A stretch of 64,000 nt of DNA from Hyaloraphidium curvatum SAG 235-1 (taxonomy: Eukaryota; Fungi; Monoblepharomycota), in contig JAIVFI010000047.1 of NCBI GenBank assembly GCA_025558095.1, positions 1 to 64,000 of the forward strand, in the 5' to 3' direction. Made by a program: the position numbers and the translations under genes. Of this stretch, positions 1 to 12,695 are shown piece after piece. Numbering within the stretch: the stretch's first letter is position 1; the number at the start of each line of letters is the position of its first letter. Below the pieces are notes generated by a model. That model did no database searches and had not been told where the DNA came from. It saw only the letters and a list, made by a program, of their open reading frames with translations.

Positions 1-1
1 C

Positions 2-604
2 GCAGCGGCGGAGACTCGGAACGCCAAGGCCAACGCTACCCGGCTTCCGATTACCTTCCGCCCCGGCGACCTCGTGCTCATCTGGGGACCAGAACGACCG
101 CGCAAGGGCGAGCCGGGCAAGTTCGTCTCTCGTTATCTTGGGCCCTACCGCATCGAGGAGTCAGGCCACACCGACCTCACCTGGAAGTGTAGACACGTCT
201 ACGAGACCGACCACGTCACCACTGTGCATGTGGACCGGCTGGCGCGCTACAAGCCTTGGGAGTCGGCCACCTTCAACGCGCGCTCGTGGAACGCACGCGC
301 CCCGGAGCTCGCCGCCGGTGAAGAGCTCGATCTCTCGGAACCGGTGAACGAGTTCGAAGAGGAAATCGAGGTCGAGAACGCGCTTGGGAACGAGCAGGAG
401 TACACCGTCGAGGACATCGTCGGCCACGAGGGCCAGGGTCACGGACTCAAGTTCGAGGTCAAGTGGCGGGGCTTCGCTCGCACGACCAAGCTCCCTCTGG
501 ACATGTTGCACGGCGCCATAGGGATCGTCCGCGCCTATGCCGATCGCGTTGGTCTCCAGCTCCCGACGGGTCTCCCCAGGCGCATGCGGACTCGGCGTCG
601 CTAG
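2..604 (+). CDS. pol: Pol C-terminus: integrase GPY/F region + chromodomain (5'-partial)
   Basis: Open from base 2: FRPGDLVLIW...KFVSRYLGPYRIEE...VHVDRLARY, then EYTVEDIVGH...KFEVKWRGF (chromodomain Y/W/F); TAG at 602-604. Confidence 0.92.
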   Translation, partial: AAAETRNAKANATRLPITFRPGDLVLIWGPERPRKGEPGKFVSRYLGPYRIEESGHTDLTWKCRHVYETDHVTTVHVDRLARYKPWESATFNARSWNARAPELAAGEELDLSEPVNEFEEEIEVENALGNEQEYTVEDIVGHEGQGHGLKFEVKWRGFARTTKLPLDMLHGAIGIVRAYADRVGLQLPTGLPRRMRTRRR

Positions 605-674
605 TAACACCAACGACGTCTATCCGGTCACAGCACTACCATCTCTGTGCTCCGATCCCCGGCTTTTCACTGAC

Positions 675-1660
675 TCAAACCCGACGTACTACCTCGAGCC
701 TATCCTCGACCCCCTCGAACGCCAACTTGTGATACCCGGACTGAAAATGCGTGTTCAGATTGCCCAGGAGGCCCTTAGCCTTGTGCTTTACCAGATGGCA
801 CCACGGGAACGAGCATACCGCCACTTCGCCCTTGGTGGGGCTCCGGTACAGTTCGCCGGCGTACGTTCCGGCAATCTTCCATCGGAGGAAGGAGCCTGCC
901 GGCACGGCATCAGGGACCTTCTTCGTCACCCGTTCCGCCTTCAAGCCCCAGACCGGCGACGACTTCTTCATCTGGCACATTCAGTGACGATCAGCGCTTG
1001 TGGGGCGTACTCCCGTCGAGCCGTTCACCTGCGCAATCTGCTCCCGGGCCTCCCCGCGCTGCACCACATGCCCCTCGTCTTTACCTGAAGTTGCCGTTTG
1101 GGCCGTCTGGAAGGCGCTCCCTTGTTCAGTGGCGGCCTCGAAGTCGCCTAAGTGGTCCAGCTCCCAAGAGGGCGCATGAAGCGTGACTGACAGCACGGGG
1201 ACTTCGTCGGCCGCCTCGAGCTCCTCCCTCGAGTCCGCCGCCGACTCGCCCTCGCCGACGGAAGGCGCACCCTTCGACGACATCGCCGGCAGGAAGACGC
1301 CGGAGGTCCGGGTTGCGGCCGCGGCCGCGATCGGGTCGTTGCCTCTGGCCCCGCCAGCCTCGCGCAGCTTGGCGGTCCCGCCGGCCTCGCGCAGCTCGGC
1401 GACGAGCCGACGGAGCACTCGGACCTCGACAACGACGTTCCCAGCCTCTTCGGCCAGCGGCAACATCCCGCGCATGGCGGCCAGACGCACCAGTTGCAGG
1501 AAGCAGTCGACCACGTCGTCCTCCTGGCGCGGCGCTGAGCTCCCGTTCGAGGACCACGCCGCTACGCTCTTACCTTGGTGCACAGCAGGACGTCGAAGGT
1601 CGGCAACCGAACCTCGAACCACGAACTCGGCGGGACGACGTTCGGCAGCTCCGCACTCAT
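675..1660 (-). CDS. Antisense 3-exon accessory gene (~292 aa) with C-terminal C2H2 (U1/matrin- or BED-like) zinc finger
   Basis: Exons 1660-1574, 1523-1029, 971-675; phase-0 introns 1573-1524 (GTAAGA..CCAG, 50 nt) and 1028-972 (GTGAAC..GCTGATC..CCAG, 57 nt); C-x4-C-x16-H-x5-H motif CSFPWC...NLNTHFQSGYH. Confidence 0.7.
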
Positions 1661-1799
1661 GACAGGCGCGGAGATCCCCCCAGCTCTTCTGGACCCTACG
1701 TCGCGATCCCCCGCGAGCGCTTTCGTCGACGCAATGGCGTACGGCCCTCGCTCGCGCCCCGTCCCCCGTGGCGGGGACTGGTGACCCGGTGTGCGGGCG

Positions 1800-1936
1800 A
1801 ACTCGCGGTCGACTCGACTCGCAGTTGACTCGCGGTTGACTCGCGGTTGGCTCGCGGTTGACTCGCAAGTGACTCGCGAGTCACTCGCGAGTCGCTCGCA
1901 AGTCACTCGCGAGCGACTTGCGATGCACTCGCGAGT
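1800..1936. repeat. Tandem array of ~12 degenerate 11-bp units, consensus GACTCGCG(A/G)(G/T)T
   Basis: gactcgcagtt gactcgcggtt gactcgcggtt ggctcgcggtt gactcgcaagt gactcgcgagt cactcgcgagt ... read directly. Confidence 0.95.
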
Positions 1937-1953
1937 TGCCTGCGCTTCGCACC

Positions 1954-1960
1954 ATATAAG
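1954..1960 (+). promoter_or_regulatory. Putative TATA box of internal promoter
   Basis: ATATAAG in GC-rich DNA, ~20 bp after the array and ~70 bp before ATG 2029; same layout as 3623-3631. Confidence 0.6.
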
Positions 1961-2028
1961 CGGCGGACCACAGGAGGCCGCGGCCGCGGACTACGCACCC
2001 AACGTCGACCTCGCCGCTACCGTCTCCC

Positions 2029-3294
2029 ATGGCGACCCCCACGACTGCCGGCCACAACCTGCGGCCCCGCCGGCCGCATGTGGCCACGGCGCCGCCGCCG
2101 GCGACTGCGCCCGTCGCTGCGTTGCCTGGCGTCGTACCCCCGGACTATCGGTCGGCGCTTGCCTCCCTCTCGACCCGGCTGGACGACCTCCGGGCCGACC
2201 TCGACGTCAGACACTCCCAGACGACGGCCCACTTGCACAAGGTCGAGCAGGCCGCCTTCTCCGCGGTCATGCCCATCCGCGCAGCCCTCGACGCACTCCA
2301 CCCGGTGCTCAACACCCTCGTCAATGTCGGCAACCTGGAGCAGCACGCTCTTGACCGCGTAACGGCGACGCTCGAGCAGCAAGAGGCCCGCCTGGACGCC
2401 CAGATCCGCCAGCAGCGTGACGAGCTCCAGGTGGTCCTCAGTGGCCGCCACCGCGAACTTGAGTTCGCCGTCACCGCCTTGCGCCGGACCGACGACGCTC
2501 GTCTCGGTGCCATCGAGACGCAGCTCGACCGGCTTGCGTTGGTGCTCGAGGCTCAACGTCAGAACTTCAACGGCATTCTCCTGGTGGACGAAGCTACCAT
2601 CGAGGAGTTGAGGGAGTTCGGCTCTTCCCTCGCCGGGCTGGTTGCTCAGACCGGGACCAACCTCGAAACCACCATCGAGACCGTCGTCGAGACCAATCTC
2701 GCCCGTCACAACAATGGCCCCATGGCGGAGTTTGCGGCCGACCTCAAGAGCGTCCTGGCGGCCCATCTGCAGCGATTTGGGTCGGAGCAGCACAAGCAGC
2801 TCATGCTTTCAGCTCAAGACCACACCACGCTCCTCACGGCCGGCCTGAACGCGCAGCGCGAGCACTTCACCAAGACCGCCGACGAGCAACGGGCCCTCCT
2901 GCGTCGCTTCCTCGGCAATCAAGTGGCTCCCCTGGCGGGGCAAACGACGCCCGCCGTGGTCACCTCCACGCCGGTCGGCCGCGTCAAGGACGAGGACCTC
3001 GTCACCTCCGACGATGAGGCTGGGGATATGCAACCTCCAGCTCCTCGCCCCGAGAGCGTGTCCAGCAGCGACGCCTCCTCCATCGTCTCGCAGGACGACG
3101 GCCTCTTGGCCGCCCTGTACGACGACATCCCGGCCGCTCCCTACAAGTCGACCATGCCCCCGGTCTACACCCCCTCGGCCGCGGACGGCTCAGCCGTGCA
3201 TGCCGCCTTCGCTCTCGACTTTACCCGCCGGCTCCGCGCCCCGCCGCCGAGCGACGACGAGGCGGACGCCGACGTCGACTTTGAGGACGCCTAA
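2029..3294 (+). CDS. Intronless accessory ORF (421 aa), long helical/coiled-coil core, acidic low-complexity tail
   Basis: Long ORF with GC3-biased codons, heptad-like LxxLxxRL segments, located between pol and the PPT. Confidence 0.75.
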   Translation: MATPTTAGHNLRPRRPHVATAPPPATAPVAALPGVVPPDYRSALASLSTRLDDLRADLDVRHSQTTAHLHKVEQAAFSAVMPIRAALDALHPVLNTLVNVGNLEQHALDRVTATLEQQEARLDAQIRQQRDELQVVLSGRHRELEFAVTALRRTDDARLGAIETQLDRLALVLEAQRQNFNGILLVDEATIEELREFGSSLAGLVAQTGTNLETTIETVVETNLARHNNGPMAEFAADLKSVLAAHLQRFGSEQHKQLMLSAQDHTTLLTAGLNAQREHFTKTADEQRALLRRFLGNQVAPLAGQTTPAVVTSTPVGRVKDEDLVTSDDEAGDMQPPAPRPESVSSSDASSIVSQDDGLLAALYDDIPAAPYKSTMPPVYTPSAADGSAVHAAFALDFTRRLRAPPPSDDEADADVDFEDA

Positions 3295-3421
3295 GCCACC
3301 CTTCGGCCCTACACTCTCCAACATCTGTTGTCTCCACCTCGGCCTTCAACATCTTCTACTGCAAGCATGACGTCACTCCGCGGAGGAGCTTCGATTTCGT
3401 GGCGCCGAGGGCGGCGCCTTC

Positions 3422-3436
3422 TTTTGGGTGGGGGCG
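3422..3436 (+). other. T-tract + polypurine-tract-like segment
   Basis: TTTTGGGTGGGGGCG directly before TG at 3437. Confidence 0.55.
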
Positions 3437-3792
3437 TGCGAAGGTACAGGACGTCTGACATTCGGACAAGGGTATTTTCATTTTCGGTTCGGAGGCGTGG
3501 AGGCGTCGGTCCTCGCGATCGACTCGTGATCGACTCGCGATCGACTCGCGAGTGACTCGCGAGTCACTCGCGAGCGACTCGCGAGCGACTCGCAAGTGAC
3601 TCGGCACAGCCACCCTCCTGGGATATATAAAGAGCGGGACATGTAACAGTACAATCTTGATCGCCAGTTGACTCTACGTGCTCTCCGTGTCGTTCGACCA
3701 CCGTGCGGAACCCCGCCCGGCCGGATCCTCGTTCTGAGAGCCCTTGGGACGCACCCCGGGAGACATCCCGTAACCTCTTTCCCCCGGCTACA
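3437..3792 (+). repeat. Putative 3' LTR (TG...CA; end uncertain)
   Basis: Begins TG after PPT; contains 11-bp array and TATATAA (3624-3630); candidate end ...GGCTACA 3792; second LTR not in window. Confidence 0.5.
3510..3603. repeat. Second tandem array of 8-9 11-bp GACTCGCGAGT-type units
   Basis: gactcgtgatc gactcgcgatc gactcgcgagt gactcgcgagt cactcgcgagc gactcgcgagc gactcgcaagt. Confidence 0.95.
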
Positions 3793-3874
3793 GTCAAGTA
3801 TCTTCAGCGCTGTTCGCTTATTCATATTCAGGGCCTATCCGACCCGAAGAGCCGAGCGGGATTCGCGCGCCGGG

Positions 3875-6097
3875 TTAGAGCTTCAGGCCCGGTTCCGACC
3901 CGGACCGTCGCACTCCGATCTTGCCGGCCGGCAACGGGATGACGGCGGTCGGCATCACAACCGTGGGAGCCACGAGGGCGGCCTCGTTCGGCCAAGGCGC
4001 CGCTGCCGTCGATACCGTGCTCATCTCAGGGATGGCGGAGGGAGGGTCGTTGCTGGGGACGGGGAAGGCGTCGTCGGCTTTGGGCATGCTCATGACTGAG
4101 GGATCCCAGGTCAGCGTCGAGCCCTGGATGTCCTTCCACTTCTCCTGCGAATCCTCCTCGGAGGAGGCGTCGGTCTTATGATCGGCCGCGGCGGCGCGCT
4201 TCCTCTTCATGCCGTAGTACGTCAGGCCGCCGATCGCACCCAGCGCCACCACCCCGCCCACGACGCCGCCGACAATGGCGCCGATGTTGCTCGGGGGCGG
4301 CGGAGGCGGCGGGGCCGCGGAGGAGGCCGAGACAGTCCATAGTCCGGCCTGCGCGCTCGAGCACGAGCCAAGGGTCACTGGCCCCTCGGATGGGACCTGC
4401 AGGCAGCCGGCCGAGGCGCCGAGGTTGGCATTCATGACCTTGGTGGTGCCCGAGGAGTTGAAGAGCGTCCAGTACGGAAGCGCGCCGACCTGCCGCCGCC
4501 GGCGCCCCGCGGATCCGCCAGGGCAGCTTTCGTCGAGCACCGAAGCCGTGGTGCCGGATCGGCGCACTTGGAGGCAAGAAGACCCGCGCTGCAGCAGGAT
4601 GGCCGACGAATCGGGCACCCGGCCGACGGCATACTCGCCCGAAGATCCATCAGCAAGCGAGCACTCCGGGTTGCAAGAGAGACCTTTGGCACCGGAGGCA
4701 ATGAAGATCTTGGAGCCGGGTTCGATCGTCACGGATGTCGCCCCTGCGGGAAGGACGACGGCGGAGCTTGGAACGCTGGCAAAAGTTGTGCCCGAGCCGA
4801 CAGTCGATGTAGCACCTGCGACGGGTGCACTTGAAGTCGTGGCAAAAACGGAGCTCGTGGTGGCCAGCAGGGAGGTCCTTGAAGACGGGACGAGGAACGT
4901 CGAGGTAACGAAAACAGCATTCGAGGTGGATATTGGCCGGAACTGGCAGACGCTGGACGAGCAGCCCGTCGAGTCTGCAGGGCAGCTCGCCCCGCATCGC
5001 CCGCAATGGTTCCGGTCCGAGTCGGTCGAGACGCAGAAGCCGTTGCAGTTGGTGAGCCCTCTGGGGCAGACGCATCTGCCGCCCGAGCACGACTGTCCGC
5101 TGGGACACGCAGTGCCACATTTTCCGCAGTTTTGCGCGTTGGAATCGAGCACGACGCAATTGACGGAGCTCTCGCTGCCGCAGTTTGTCTGGCCGCTGGG
5201 GCAAGTTGGACGGAACTGGCAAGCGCCCGAGGAGCAACCGATTGAATCCGTGGGGCAGCTGTTGCCGCAGTGCCCTGAGCAACAAAAAGATGAGAAAGAT
5301 GCGCTGGCTGTGTGCAGGTTGTTGTGGCTTACCGCAATTGTTGCGATCCGAGCTGGTGGCGACGCAATAGCCGCCACATTCCTTCTGCCCGCTCGGACAG
5401 TAGCAGTTGCGGCCCGAGTTGCCGTCCGACGTGAAGCCCGGGTTGCAGGTGCATGATCCGCCCGTGCACGACGAGAAAGCACCGCAGTTGACTCCCGCGC
5501 AAGGATCGATTGGACGGCAGTTCCTTCCGTCGTTGGAAGACGAGGTGTAGCCGGAGTTGCAGGTGCACGTCCCGCCGGAGCAGGAAGAGTAATCGCCGCA
5601 GTTGACGTTGGCGCAGGGATTGGCTGGCGGAGGCGGAGGACCAGCTCCAACACAGCGGCCACTGGAGCACTGCGCAGAGATCCCAAGTCAGCGATGCACG
5701 GAAGTAGTCTACCGAAACCACAAAGCAGCACCGATTCTCCAGCCCCACATCTGTTGTTCAGTGACCCACAATGTAAGTCATTGTTGTCGAAGTCGAAATA
5801 CTTCATACAAAACACGTCGTATGCTGGGCCATCACTGCAAAGGCATCTTGACAAAGCGCGAACACATTGATCAAACAGAGGGCCAGGACAGTCGCCATCG
5901 GAGTTGCATGGAATGTAACATAGGCCGGCGGGATCAGAACACTGAGGAAACGACCATCAATAAAGGGTGACCTCCTTTTACCATGTGCTCACCTTCCACC
6001 CTGTTGGACACCCGTTCTTGCATAAGGGGTACTTCTGGCTCTCTACCACTTGCGCAGAGCCCAACAAGAAAGAGAACACAACGAAAATGACCGCCAT
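3875..6097 (-). CDS. Multi-exon single-pass membrane protein: signal peptide, Cys-rich Stig1-like repeats, S/T stalk, ricin-B-like lectin region, TM helix
   Basis: MAVIFVVFSFLLGSAQ signal; repeats NAQNCGKCGTACP / DRNHCGRCGASCP; CLQV..LGSC..GLW; TM IGAIVGGVVGGVVALGAIGGLTYY followed by KRKR. Confidence 0.75.
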
Positions 6098-9324: not shown

Positions 9325-10661
9325 CTTTCGGTCGGGGAGCGGAGAATGGGTGAACGCGGGAAGGGGACGGGTGTCCCTGACAAGGCTGCGGGCGGGATGG
9401 GGGCGGGGGATCGGACAGATGCCTCCCTTCCCGGACGGGGGCGGATCAAACGCGGGGCGGCATCTGACAAGCCGATCGGTCCGTCTGCTCGTCGAGAACC
9501 GCGGTTCGGAAGGGGAGGACGATCGGACGCGTTGTTTGACTGACTGACTTGCGTTCGCCAAGAGGGCTCCCCTCTGTTCGGCTAGCAACCCGCTGCGAGC
9601 AGTTCGGACGCCGCCAATACGCACGATCGAACGGTCGACCATCGCTGATGGGATGGAATCCGTCTGTTTGTCGCCGCCGCCGGCGAGCTGAGGGCCCAGC
9701 GCGCGGGATGCCGCAGGCTGTGCTTCCGCACGCACGCGACAGCGGAAGCCGCCGGTGTTTGGCAGCCTGCTGCTCGGTGGATGTCGATCCAGACTGCAAA
9801 GGATGCGCGGGAATAGGACGCCGGATGTCGCTGGCACCGCCCGGTGGGGGTCGGTCGGCGGGCTGGGGCTTCGGGTCCTGGGAGAGGGCAGAGGCGTCGA
9901 TCGAAGGGGTGCTTGGAACCGTCTATCGAACCGATCGGCCGCCTCTCCCTGCGGATGATTTAGCACGCCATCCGCATTGCCGATCCCCGCCCCCTGCGGT
10001 GCCGCCCCGGGTCCGCCTCGGTACGGTCCCCCGCGCTCGAAGAGGAAGGAGGGATCGGCGCGCCGCGGCGCCTCCCCCGCGGGGGACCCGATCGGCGGCC
10101 GGAGGCATGCTGCGGAGGCTGGCTGCCAGCTGCGATTGCTGCGGCGCGGGGGGATCGGGCGGCGGCCGGGGGTTGTTGGGCCCTTGCTGTTTGTCCATCC
10201 AGGCCCCAGCGCGAAACCAGCGAGGGCTGGTGGTGTGCAAGTCCCCCGAGAAGAACCCCCACAGCAGGGGTTTGCCAGCACCTGTGCGGCGCGCGCGGCC
10301 GCGGATCCAGGTGCGTTTGCTGCCGGCGGGCGGGGCGGGCGGGGCGAGCGGGGCGCGGGGCGCGCGGGGGTTCGGGAGCGCGGCCGTGTTTGCCGGTCGC
10401 GGCGGCGCTCCGCCCAGCGCGGCGCCGCGCCATTGAATTCGGCCGCGCCGCGGATCGGCCGCGGGAGGGCGGCGCGCGGCCGGCGGCGCGCGCGGCCGGG
10501 CGGGGAGCGACGCACCGCGCACCCCGGGCGACACCCTCCGCCCGCCACGTCGATCGGCGCACGCCGCATTCTGACCGCCGCTCCCGCACTCCGCTCCTCG
10601 TCGCAGGCTTCCGCCGGCCCGCACACGCCGCATGGCTTGAGCCGCGCCCGCAGCCCCCGCA

Positions 10662-12435
10662 ATGGACCCCATGGCCGTCGACCCGCCGGCTGCCGACCCG
10701 GCCGCGGACGCAAAGCGCGGCGCGGACTCGGAGGACATGCCCATGCCGGCGCCGGGCCCGGTGCCCAACGTGGCCGCTCCCGCGCCCGCTGTGCGCATCC
10801 CCGCGGCCGCGGCGGGTGCGCCGCCCGGCCTGCTGAGCCCCGCCAGCGAGGCGCACGCCTCGGAGGACGCGGTCATGGCGCTGCTCTCGATGAGCAACGG
10901 CCGCGCGAGCCCCGGCCCGCAGGCGACGCAGCCGCTGCCCGCTGTGTTCGTGTCGCCTTCGACGCCCGTGACAGGCCCCGCGCAGGCAGCCGACGGCGCC
11001 GACCCGCCGCACCCCACGCGCAAGCGCCGCTCGGAGGACCTCGCCGAGGCCGCAGCCGCATCCGCCGCGGGCGGCGCGCACTCGCCGGACCGCAGGCCGT
11101 CCCCCGAGCCCGCCGACCCCGCGCAGCGCCCCCGCTCCCCCTTCCAGCACCGCGCCCACTCGCCGCAGCACCACGCGCGGCAGCTCTCCCCCGCCCTCGC
11201 CGCGCAGATGGGCCACGCCATGCAGGGCGCGTACCTCGTCGACTCCGCAACCGGCCTGCCCGTGCACTACGCCTTTTCCGGCGCCCCCGGCATCGCCTAC
11301 GCCCACCCGCACGCATACCCATACGGCTACCCCGCGCAGGCCGCGGGCCAGGCCCCGCACTCGCCCGGCTCGCTCGTGGCCGTGGTGGTGCCCACCAACC
11401 CCGCCTGGGCCGCCGGCGCGCTCGGCGGGCCGGGCGGCGTGGTGTTCCAGCACTTTGCCCCCGCCCATCAGCAGGGCGGCAAGCGCGGCTCGCTGCCCCC
11501 GGGCGGCTACGCGGCCTACCCGCCCGTGTTCCCCGTCTCGACGAGCCTCGCACCCGCGGGGTCGACCGAGTGGCCCGCGGGCTTCCAGCAGGCCGGGCAG
11601 GCCCGCCTGCACCCCTCTGGCCTCGTCCTGCCCCCGCCGAGCATGGTGGTCGACGAGGCCTCGTCCCCCGAGACCAACGCCACGAACCGCACCTCGCCCA
11701 GCGACGCCTCGCCCGTCTCGTCGACGCTGTACCCTGGCGACGGCAAGAAGTCGGCCTCGGACGCCGAGGACGCGGGCGCGAAAAGGCGCAGGGGGCACCG
11801 CCGCAACCTGACCGCCACCTCGACGGGGTCCGCGGGCTCGGCGCACTCGGGCGCGGCGTCGGCGGCGTCGTCGCGCGAGGCGAGGGTGTTCCAGTGCGAG
11901 CAGTGCGGCAAGGTGCTCAAGAGCTCGGGGCACTACCACCGGCACCGCAGGGAGGTGCACGAGCGCAAGCGCGACTACGGTACGTTGCCCCGGCGCGCCA
12001 TCTCGCTCTCCGTCCAATCTGACCATCCCGCCCTCCACGTTCACAGTGTGCACGGTGTGCAACGAGGCCTTCTCCCGGCAGGAGCACCTCTCCCGCCACA
12101 TGGCCTCCCACGAGCGCGGCACCGCGCACCCCGCCGTGCGCATGGCCGGCGGCTCCGGCTCCCCCGGCCTCTCGTCGTCCTCGTACGAGCACGGCAGCTC
12201 GCCGCGCTCGATCCTCTCGGACCTCGGGCCGTCGCCGGTGCTCGCGGCCGCGGGCCACCACGGCGAAGCGGGGGACGACGGCAGGTCCGCGTTCCAGAAG
12301 CCGGAGGGGGTGCCGGTGCAGCCGCACGGGGTGCAGGGGGACGGCAAGGCCGGGGAGGACCTGGTGGTGCCGTCGCCCATCTCGGCGGCGGCCAACCCGG
12401 GGGAGCACTTCTGGCGGGACGAGCGCACGCAGTGA
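10662..12435 (+). CDS. C2H2 zinc-finger transcription factor (2 fingers)
   Basis: FQCEQCGKVLKSSGHYHRHRREVH; intron 11980-12046; VCTVCNEAFSRQEHLSRHMASH. Confidence 0.88.
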
Positions 12436-12695
12436 CCGCCGCGCGGCGACCGGCGCGCCCGCTGCCGGGGGGGTTTCCGGGAAAGAATTGTAGATTAGCA
12501 GCATACCTGTGGTCGTTTGCCGGCTGGGGCTTGGACGCTGTGACGTTGTGGGATTTGTAGGTCGTAGGATACACGTAATCACGGTTGGATAAAAGCACTC
12601 GCATGGTGTACAATCGCCCGGGCGTCCGTCCCACCCGCACGCAAATACTCTAGTCCCATCTGTCTAGAACTCCGTCGTCCGTTGATGGTGTCCAA

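Follow-up and report, generated by a model that had tools for sequence, protein, structure and literature searches.

What does a fungal Ty3/gypsy chromovirus carry in the 2.8 kb between the stop codon of its pol gene and its 3' long terminal repeat (LTR), and do the two genes found there serve the element or travel as passengers? The question is raised by the first 3912 nucleotides (nt) of a 64,000-nt stretch of DNA (contig JAIVFI010000047.1 of assembly GCA_025558095.1, positions 1 to 64,000 of the forward strand; hereafter the window) from Hyaloraphidium curvatum SAG 235-1, an early-diverging freshwater fungus of the Monoblepharidomycetes. Positions 1-3912 are probably best understood as the 3' part of a young, multi-copy and transcribed chromovirus with two extra genes, a likely internal two-way promoter and, in the products of these genes, regulators encoded by the element itself. 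In the order of the window, the end of pol is followed by a gene on the opposite strand, a promoter-like module, a gene on the pol strand and the 3' LTR; the whole unit is present in several copies and transcribed, and the antisense gene is spliced.

Public sequencing runs were compared with the window in the form of contigs: one RNA-like run (X1), two DNA-like runs under the same organism code (X2 and X3) and a freshwater metagenome (X4), contig depth being taken as a rough measure of copy number. An original prediction, made by a model from the letters of the stretch, had proposed a chromovirus with a divergent two-gene cassette, and its claims are taken up below together with the results that bear on them.

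The 3' end of pol

The frame from 2 to 604 on the plus strand is open and terminates at a stop codon at 602-604, where the original prediction had placed the end of pol. A HMMER search of 1.84 billion representative proteins matched 60 proteins at E<=0.001, all of which were scanned with Pfam. Ty3/gypsy integrase or reverse transcriptase (RT) domains (Integrase_p58_C, SH3_Tf2-1, rve, Integrase_H2C2, RVT_1, RT_RNaseH) are present in 38 of the 60 and a Chromo domain in 35; 16 matches contain integrase and Chromo, ordered as in the query, 19 contain Chromo alone and 3 neither of the two. Query residues ~2-105 align to the integrase- or RT-bearing proteins, and full-length pols are aligned at their extreme C-termini (P0053 at residues 1635-1804 of 1826, P0061 at 1015-1179 of 1241), which argues that position 604 is the natural end of the gene. 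Judged by these matches, 1-604 is the C-terminus of a Ty3/gypsy chromovirus pol, a predicted SH3-like integrase domain of the GPY/F type (~aa 2-105) being followed by a predicted chromodomain (~aa 125-185), in agreement with the domains originally proposed.

On the fragment itself, Pfam Chromo scores below threshold (E 0.0016, 18.8 bits, cut-off 25.1 bits), and no integrase-type Pfam model was reported for the fragment alone. The three PDB matches at E<=10 are all chromodomain proteins, HP1 and cpSRP43 at the top, with E values of 0.28-1, none of them significant; a PDB sequence search with the whole fragment yielded nothing at E<=1, and one with the integrase part returned chance-level rows only. 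Identity among the pol matches does not exceed 44%, the top named match belonging to Gonapodya sp., which is related to the host, and scans of metagenomes and viral contigs with the fragment gave no match. One X1 contig continues pol for 486 nt upstream of the window start. Another X1 contig, of low depth, matches 535-604, the final 70 nt of pol, except for 4 differences (94% alike) and then runs for 388 nt in sequence unlike the window, which hints at a diverged sister element with a different sequence directly behind the pol stop.

Two genes between pol and the LTR

The first gene behind pol lies on the minus strand at 675-1660. Its exons (1660-1574, 1523-1029 and 971-678, with the stop codon at 677-675) are separated by introns of 50 nt (1573-1524) and 57 nt (1028-972), both GT..AG; exon 1 opens with an ATG at 1660 and runs for 29 codons up to a GTAAGA donor, and the second intron reads GTGAAC...CAG. 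The corresponding splice joints, 1522>1573 (50 nt skipped) and 971>1029 (57 nt skipped), which appear as CT..AC on the plus strand, are found in X1 contigs, whereas both joints have a depth of 0 in X2 and X3, where the introns are retained. The occurrence of canonical joints in X1 alone strengthens the guess that this run consists of RNA. The spliced coding sequence of 876 nt is free of stops and encodes 292 aa, and its frames show a coding signal in their codon-position GC contents (GC3 0.78-0.90, GC2 0.44-0.50). The gene is thus real and spliced, as originally predicted, and its location makes it a coding gene that runs antisense to gag-pol in the interval from pol to the 3' LTR, a position termed aORF-3R.

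The second gene, at 2029-3294 on the plus strand, is intronless and encodes 421 aa with a Pro/Arg-rich N-terminus, a predicted helical core (~38-299) and an acidic, Pro-rich tail. Its GC1/2/3 of 0.73/0.47/0.85 reveals strong coding periodicity, and an ATG-initiated open reading frame (ORF) of 421 aa was reached in only 1 of 500 shuffles of 605-3436. The intronless ORF had been called a coiled-coil gene; the ORF stands, and the coiled coil is reduced to helices at residues 38-299 which AF2 predicts with low confidence (pLDDT 53). An env-like reading (aORF-3S, as in errantiviruses or Athila) was rejected: the maximum 19-residue hydropathy of the Kyte-Doolittle type (KD19) is 1.2, no membrane segment is found, and the Pro/Arg-rich N-terminus and a helical protein with disordered ends do not suit it. 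The lack of a hydrophobic segment in particular argues against an envelope protein. Baculo_PEP_C and DUF2218 were likewise dismissed as sub-threshold Pfam hits typical of helical low-complexity sequence. Foldseek with the AF2 model retrieved no match in the PDB (best E 3.6), the Atlas returned no score above 0.79, and metagenome and viral-contig scans with this protein gave no match. Its sole relatives among 5.8 billion proteins are two hypothetical proteins of H. curvatum, P0001 and P0002.

The distribution of introns deserves attention. Introns are not expected in a sense gene that travels with a retroelement, and those on the opposite strand are not removed from the sense genomic RNA, the principle on which antisense-intron retrotransposition reporters are built. 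Introns confined to the antisense gene would therefore survive retrotransposition, since the sense genomic RNA cannot splice them, and the arrangement found here is consistent with carriage of both genes through an RNA intermediate.

The LTR and an internal copy of its repeat module

At 3415-3436 on the plus strand, a G-rich stretch (TTTTGGGTGGGGGCG) abuts the start of the LTR; its role as a polypurine tract is suggested by this position. The tract is broken by T and C, and GGGTGGGGGCG stands directly before TGCGA at 3437. The LTR start at 3437, already contained in the original prediction, is marked by a jump in depth and by two X1 contigs which have unrelated sequence before 3435 and 3437, so that the repeat beginning there must also sit in other contexts. 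The end had been set at ~3792. High depth persists through the bin 3781-3920, and the single-copy flank contig, with a depth of 6.7, begins at 3898; from contig depth and a TCGCA terminus, an end at 3912, good to a few bases, is more likely than one at 3792. The 3' LTR (plus strand, most likely 3437-3912) would accordingly measure 476 bp and have the form TGCGA...TCGCA. Its U3 contains nine phased 11-bp units (3512-3603), followed by TATATAAA at 3624.

At 3914, two X2 contigs depart from the window and continue in a sequence common to both, which, counted with T3914, begins with TGG. This is only a hint that the sequence behind the LTR is the primer-binding site (PBS) of a 5' copy, and the window offers no tRNA gene with which to compare it. 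Self-priming of the Tf1 type was considered and discarded, the TGG-starting sequence being merely partly complementary to 3658-3671. On the minus strand, an ORF at 3875-5956, long, cysteine-rich, with one membrane helix and without a Pfam match, overlaps the end of the LTR by its last ~12 codons and its stop (3875-3912). The element has apparently landed at the 3' end of a host gene, the C-terminus of which it now appears to encode.

The repeat of the U3 recurs between the two divergent genes, as had been noticed originally. At 1801-1951, a palindromic 11-bp repeat of the TCGCGA type is present in about 12 units (1801-1936) and is followed by TATAAG (1944-1951), 78 nt before the ATG of the sense gene. 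Tandem Repeats Finder (TRF) delimits both 11-bp arrays, at 1801-1936 and 3512-3603, each with a TATA box behind it (1944 and 3624), and self-BLAST aligns them at 81% over 90 nt. The units are strictly phased at 11 bp. Allowing one mismatch at most, ACTCGCGAGT has 10 matches in the 64-kb window, all 10 inside the two arrays, where 2.7 would be expected, and none of 100 shuffles reaches 10. In the alignment, the similarity of the internal site and the LTR wanes past the TATA region. With the likeness confined to the array and the TATA box, the internal site is to be regarded as a duplicate of the regulatory module of U3 and not as a second LTR, and the alternative of a non-autonomous LTR-gene-LTR element, with its 5' LTR at 1700-2030, was dismissed on the same grounds. 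The module at 1801-1951 may act as a promoter.

Copy number and membership of the cassette

Are the two genes part of the element, as the original prediction had it, or host genes with a piece of retrotransposon beside them? Annotated copies of the sense protein provide a first answer. P0002 (421 aa) represents three NCBI accessions with alternate numbering on one 816-kb contig, and P0001 (411 aa, the first 73 residues differing) is encoded on a 207-kb contig. The protein of the window is identical to neither of them and differs from P0002 by D397G, so that four annotated, near-identical copies and the window's own make at least five. A second answer is given by depth. In X2, contigs show 33.7 at 370-522 (pol), 33.2 at 549-736 (across the pol stop), 34.0 at 859-1526 and 35-49 at 1827-3244; in X3, cassette contigs have a depth of 52-60 and the flank contig 3898-4190 one of 6.7. 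Pol end, junction and cassette thus stand at 1:1, roughly eightfold above the flank, which corresponds to about eight copies, a rough figure. Contigs span position 604 and join pol to the cassette, and the antisense gene is, by the same rough measure, present in all or most copies (34.0 as against 33.7 for the pol end and 33.2 across 604). Over ~3.9 kb, the copy in the window differs from the majority in the runs at three positions only (175, 3218 and 3388). The element family is very young. Equal depth and near-identical copies show the cassette to be integral to a young multi-copy element; the two ORFs are neither single-copy host genes nor an insertion private to the window and absent from other copies.

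Some observations accompany these figures. The alternate accession numbers of the P0002 copies suggest that elements are clustered or tandemly arrayed on that contig, with one gene model between neighbours. RNA-like contigs leave the element at 1386, 1441, 3135 and 3752 into unrelated sequence of 28-255 nt, which may represent variant copies, chimeras or unrecognised junctions. Contigs of the freshwater metagenome X4, 151-201 nt in length, are 99-100% alike to 626-826, 2275-2982 and 3748-3829 and thus touch both accessory genes and the LTR, from which it follows that the organism, or a close relative with the element, occurs in nature.

Multiplication does not need retrotransposition, and a block in which two host genes stand between a defunct pol fragment and a solo LTR could have spread by segmental or tandem duplication. 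The three identical proteins with alternate accession numbers on one contig would suit such a block, as would the position of the element's 5' half outside the window. Self-BLAST found no second copy of 1-4000 elsewhere in the 64-kb window, and a survey of ORFs and Pfam families found no other transposon genes in it; its remainder consists of ordinary housekeeping genes (aconitase, isocitrate dehydrogenase, AICARFT/IMPCHase and others), which makes the element a dispersed insertion. Copies occur on at least two contigs and at this site, which is rich in genes and has no further copy within 60 kb; local duplication would not be expected to leave such a pattern. Furthermore, the edge of the repeat, as placed from contig depth, coincides with a TG...CA unit, whose copy number is far above that of the interior; RNA-like contigs join the start of the LTR to at least two other sequences, and the LTR end leads into the one TGG-starting sequence shared by two DNA contigs. 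Pol, finally, continues in X1 upstream of the window start. We find spread by duplication alone hardly credible.

What the accessory genes may do

From here on, the argument for a chromovirus with regulators of its own becomes conditional, and the two genes may have a role in transactivation, anti-silencing or copy control. In the antisense protein, exon 2 is acidic (28 D/E, 15 K/R) and exon 3 basic (17 K/R, 8 D/E), and exon 3 contains C53, C58, H75 and H81 in the arrangement C-x4-C-x16-H-x5-H. This spacing matches neither the BED-type nor the classical C2H2 canon. Atlas clusters, to be taken as leads only, include one with zf-BED in 12% of its members (score 0.92) and a zf-C2H2_12 cluster, and the single-sequence AF2 model of exon 3 is unusable (pLDDT 39.8). 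Of the spliced antisense zinc-finger gene originally proposed, the gene and its splicing have stood up to the X1 joints, and the finger has shrunk to a CCHH motif without a family match; 'zinc finger' is a reasonable guess as a label for exon 3.

The two genes would likely be expressed as follows. An internal two-way promoter would have been copied from the repeat-plus-TATA module of the LTR, with the palindromic array at 1801-1936 acting in both directions. The module at 1801-1951 would then direct the synthesis of a subgenomic mRNA in the sense direction, with its end in the 3' LTR, and, on the other side, of a TATA-less mRNA in the antisense direction. Through its basic CCHH exon, the antisense protein would bind DNA, possibly the arrays common to U3 and the internal module, and such binding would couple transcription of the accessory genes to that of the LTR, with the helical, acidic-tailed sense protein as a putative cofactor. 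In its most elaborate form, this would be a self-regulating 'complex' retrotransposon, in which the helically phased 11-bp TCGCGA palindromes of U3 and internal promoter would be bound by the antisense CCHH protein in a feedback resembling that of foamy-virus Tas on internal promoter and LTR, with the sense protein as co-activator or antagonist. ZBED1, a BED-finger factor, binds a site with the same TCGCGA core (as described in passages of PMC7471704), which fits the weak BED lead for the antisense finger. We hold this specific scheme to be decidedly unlikely.

A simpler explanation would be a passenger cassette, captured or born de novo in one ancestral copy, of no service to the element and intact only for its recency. 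The copies are ~99.9% alike, and intact ORFs are for this reason uninformative on selection; both accessory proteins are orphans, and the X1 contig which departs from the window directly behind the pol stop, with 94% likeness to 535-604, hints at a relative with another post-pol region. Against it, 2.8 kb of useless load would be costly to a retroelement, and a mere passenger would hardly be expected to have an internal module duplicating the regulatory array of the LTR, two precisely spliced introns and strong codon-position bias in both frames. Analogous ORFs have, moreover, been retained across entire plant lineages, according to the relevant passages of PMC11963269. Taken together, a passenger is in our view unlikely, and the preferred reading remains that of a chromovirus which encodes regulators.

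The transcripts themselves might matter more than the proteins. An antisense transcript could pair with the genomic RNA and feed small-RNA silencing or copy control, the proteins being incidental. Antisense transcription over the pol end and the cassette (X1 contigs 535-1470 and 1441-3464) would fit such RNA-level control, and a role of this kind is discussed for the antisense aORFs of plants in parts of PMC7264820. A frame of 292 codons, open across three exons, with a GC3 of the coding type and a basic CCHH exon, speaks for a protein product instead, and we rate control by RNA alone as very unlikely.

A number of points weigh against regulators encoded by the element and should be stated. 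The RNA nature of X1 is a software guess, joined by the canonical splice joints seen in this run alone, and its contigs carry no strand, transcript start or expression level. One of them (1441-3464) extends without a break from the spliced antisense exons across the array and the complete sense ORF as far as 3464; it may represent a single long antisense RNA from the 3' LTR, or merged overlapping transcripts. The antisense exons 2 and 3 match no Pfam family at E<=10, zf-BED, zf-C2H2 and TRP28 (PF04195) included, the closest PDB sequence match of the antisense protein is the first finger of KLF5 with an E of 0.42, and the word-index search found no annotated protein for exon 2. The same type of search, conducted among longer proteins, found none for pol, which is consistent with the ceiling of 44% identity given above, from which we infer that the element's own pol is absent from the annotated proteins. 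No homologue of either accessory protein outside H. curvatum was detected in protein, metagenome, viral and Atlas searches, and selection on these proteins is therefore not measurable. Both coding changes of the window copy (D58E in pol and D397G in the sense ORF) are non-synonymous, a ratio that also suits a passenger, and the three neighbouring P0002 copies could be tandem duplicates. Finally, the window begins inside pol, and the 5' LTR, the PBS in place, the target-site duplication (TSD), gag and RT lie outside it.

Surroundings of the element

The window has a GC content of 57-79% and is GC-rich and eukaryotic in character. At approximately 10000-12500, where GC reaches 77-79%, ORFs of 600-840 codons without a Pfam match run in several frames on both strands.

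Comparison with known systems

Typical fungal chromoviruses had been said in the original prediction to encode only gag and pol, a statement which is overstated and outdated in view of the precedent of Boty (as described in PMC7264820 and PMC8365987). For the plant elements Grande, RIRE2, Retand and PvRetro13, the pertinent part of PMC7264820 describes additional ORFs that lie antisense in the stretch from pol to the 3' LTR, and for Boty, a fungal element of Sclerotinia and Botrytis, likewise an antisense extra gene, brtn (Zhao et al. 2011, as cited there and in PMC8365987); the drawing of BcGypsy1 by Porquier et al. also includes brtn (PMC8365987). As presented in these passages, brtn of Boty/BcGypsy1 (Botrytis cinerea, Sclerotinia) shares with the element of H. 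curvatum the fungal Ty3/gypsy background and an additional antisense gene located between pol and the 3' LTR. It differs in being one gene, whereas two are found here, and in its ascomycete hosts, and the likeness is one of description only. Neither a sense partner gene nor an LTR-like internal module is reported where brtn is described in PMC7264820 and PMC8365987. A survey of fungal LTR elements from 2011 encountered additional domains only in 'complex transposons' derived from nested insertions, to follow the relevant section of PMC3248453.

Retand, a Tat-type element of flowering plants, is similar in several respects. In the account available from Vicient (2025, PMC11963269), 2.9-6.6 kb separate pol and LTR and contain antisense ORFs, with the probably DNA-binding TRP28 in 97% of clusters; tandem arrays are present in roughly every second element, and sense ORFs without a known domain in some. 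On this account, both systems have a long region between pol and 3' LTR (2.8 kb in H. curvatum) with an antisense ORF of predicted DNA-binding character, tandem arrays, which are frequent in Retand, a sense ORF without membrane segments, which Retand has sometimes, and a cassette carried by recently active copies. Retand, however, belongs to a non-chromovirus plant lineage and its antisense ORF contains TRP28 (PF04195), for which no match is found here, whereas the H. curvatum element has an early-diverging fungal host, a chromodomain and an array between its divergent genes that is a copy of the one in U3.

A plant element from a study of 2013, as outlined in PMC7264820, likewise has an antisense gene in its 3' internal region, with its own promoter and a nuclear protein; no sequence relation to it is shown, and the H. 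curvatum promoter is a predicted one. Retroviruses offer analogies only, namely the internal promoter of foamy viruses with the transactivator Tas acting on LTR and internal promoter (in the relevant part of PMC8670036), and antisense coding in HTLV genes of the HBZ type (mentioned in PMC7264820). Complex retroviruses differ in that there is no homology and no env in the H. curvatum element, in which U3 and the internal site share the sequence module.

Our literature searches on retrotransposons of Hyaloraphidium or Monoblepharidomycetes found nothing relevant. In the literature searched, an internal copy of the U3 array with an antisense accessory gene on one side and a sense one on the other appears to be new, and so do the host lineage and the intact, young and expressed state of the element. 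Antisense accessory genes are hereby extended from ascomycete and plant elements to the Monoblepharidomycetes, and the H. curvatum element adds to them a sense gene as partner and, in its interior, a copy of the regulatory module of the LTR. Extra genes of LTR retrotransposons are the nearest thing to a step from the simple element to the complex retrovirus, and their roles are obscure even in the well-studied cases of plants. With intact genes, near-identical copies, transcription, splicing, a candidate binding array in both promoters and, as host, a free-living fungus instead of a plant with a large genome, the function of such genes is open to experiment in H. curvatum.

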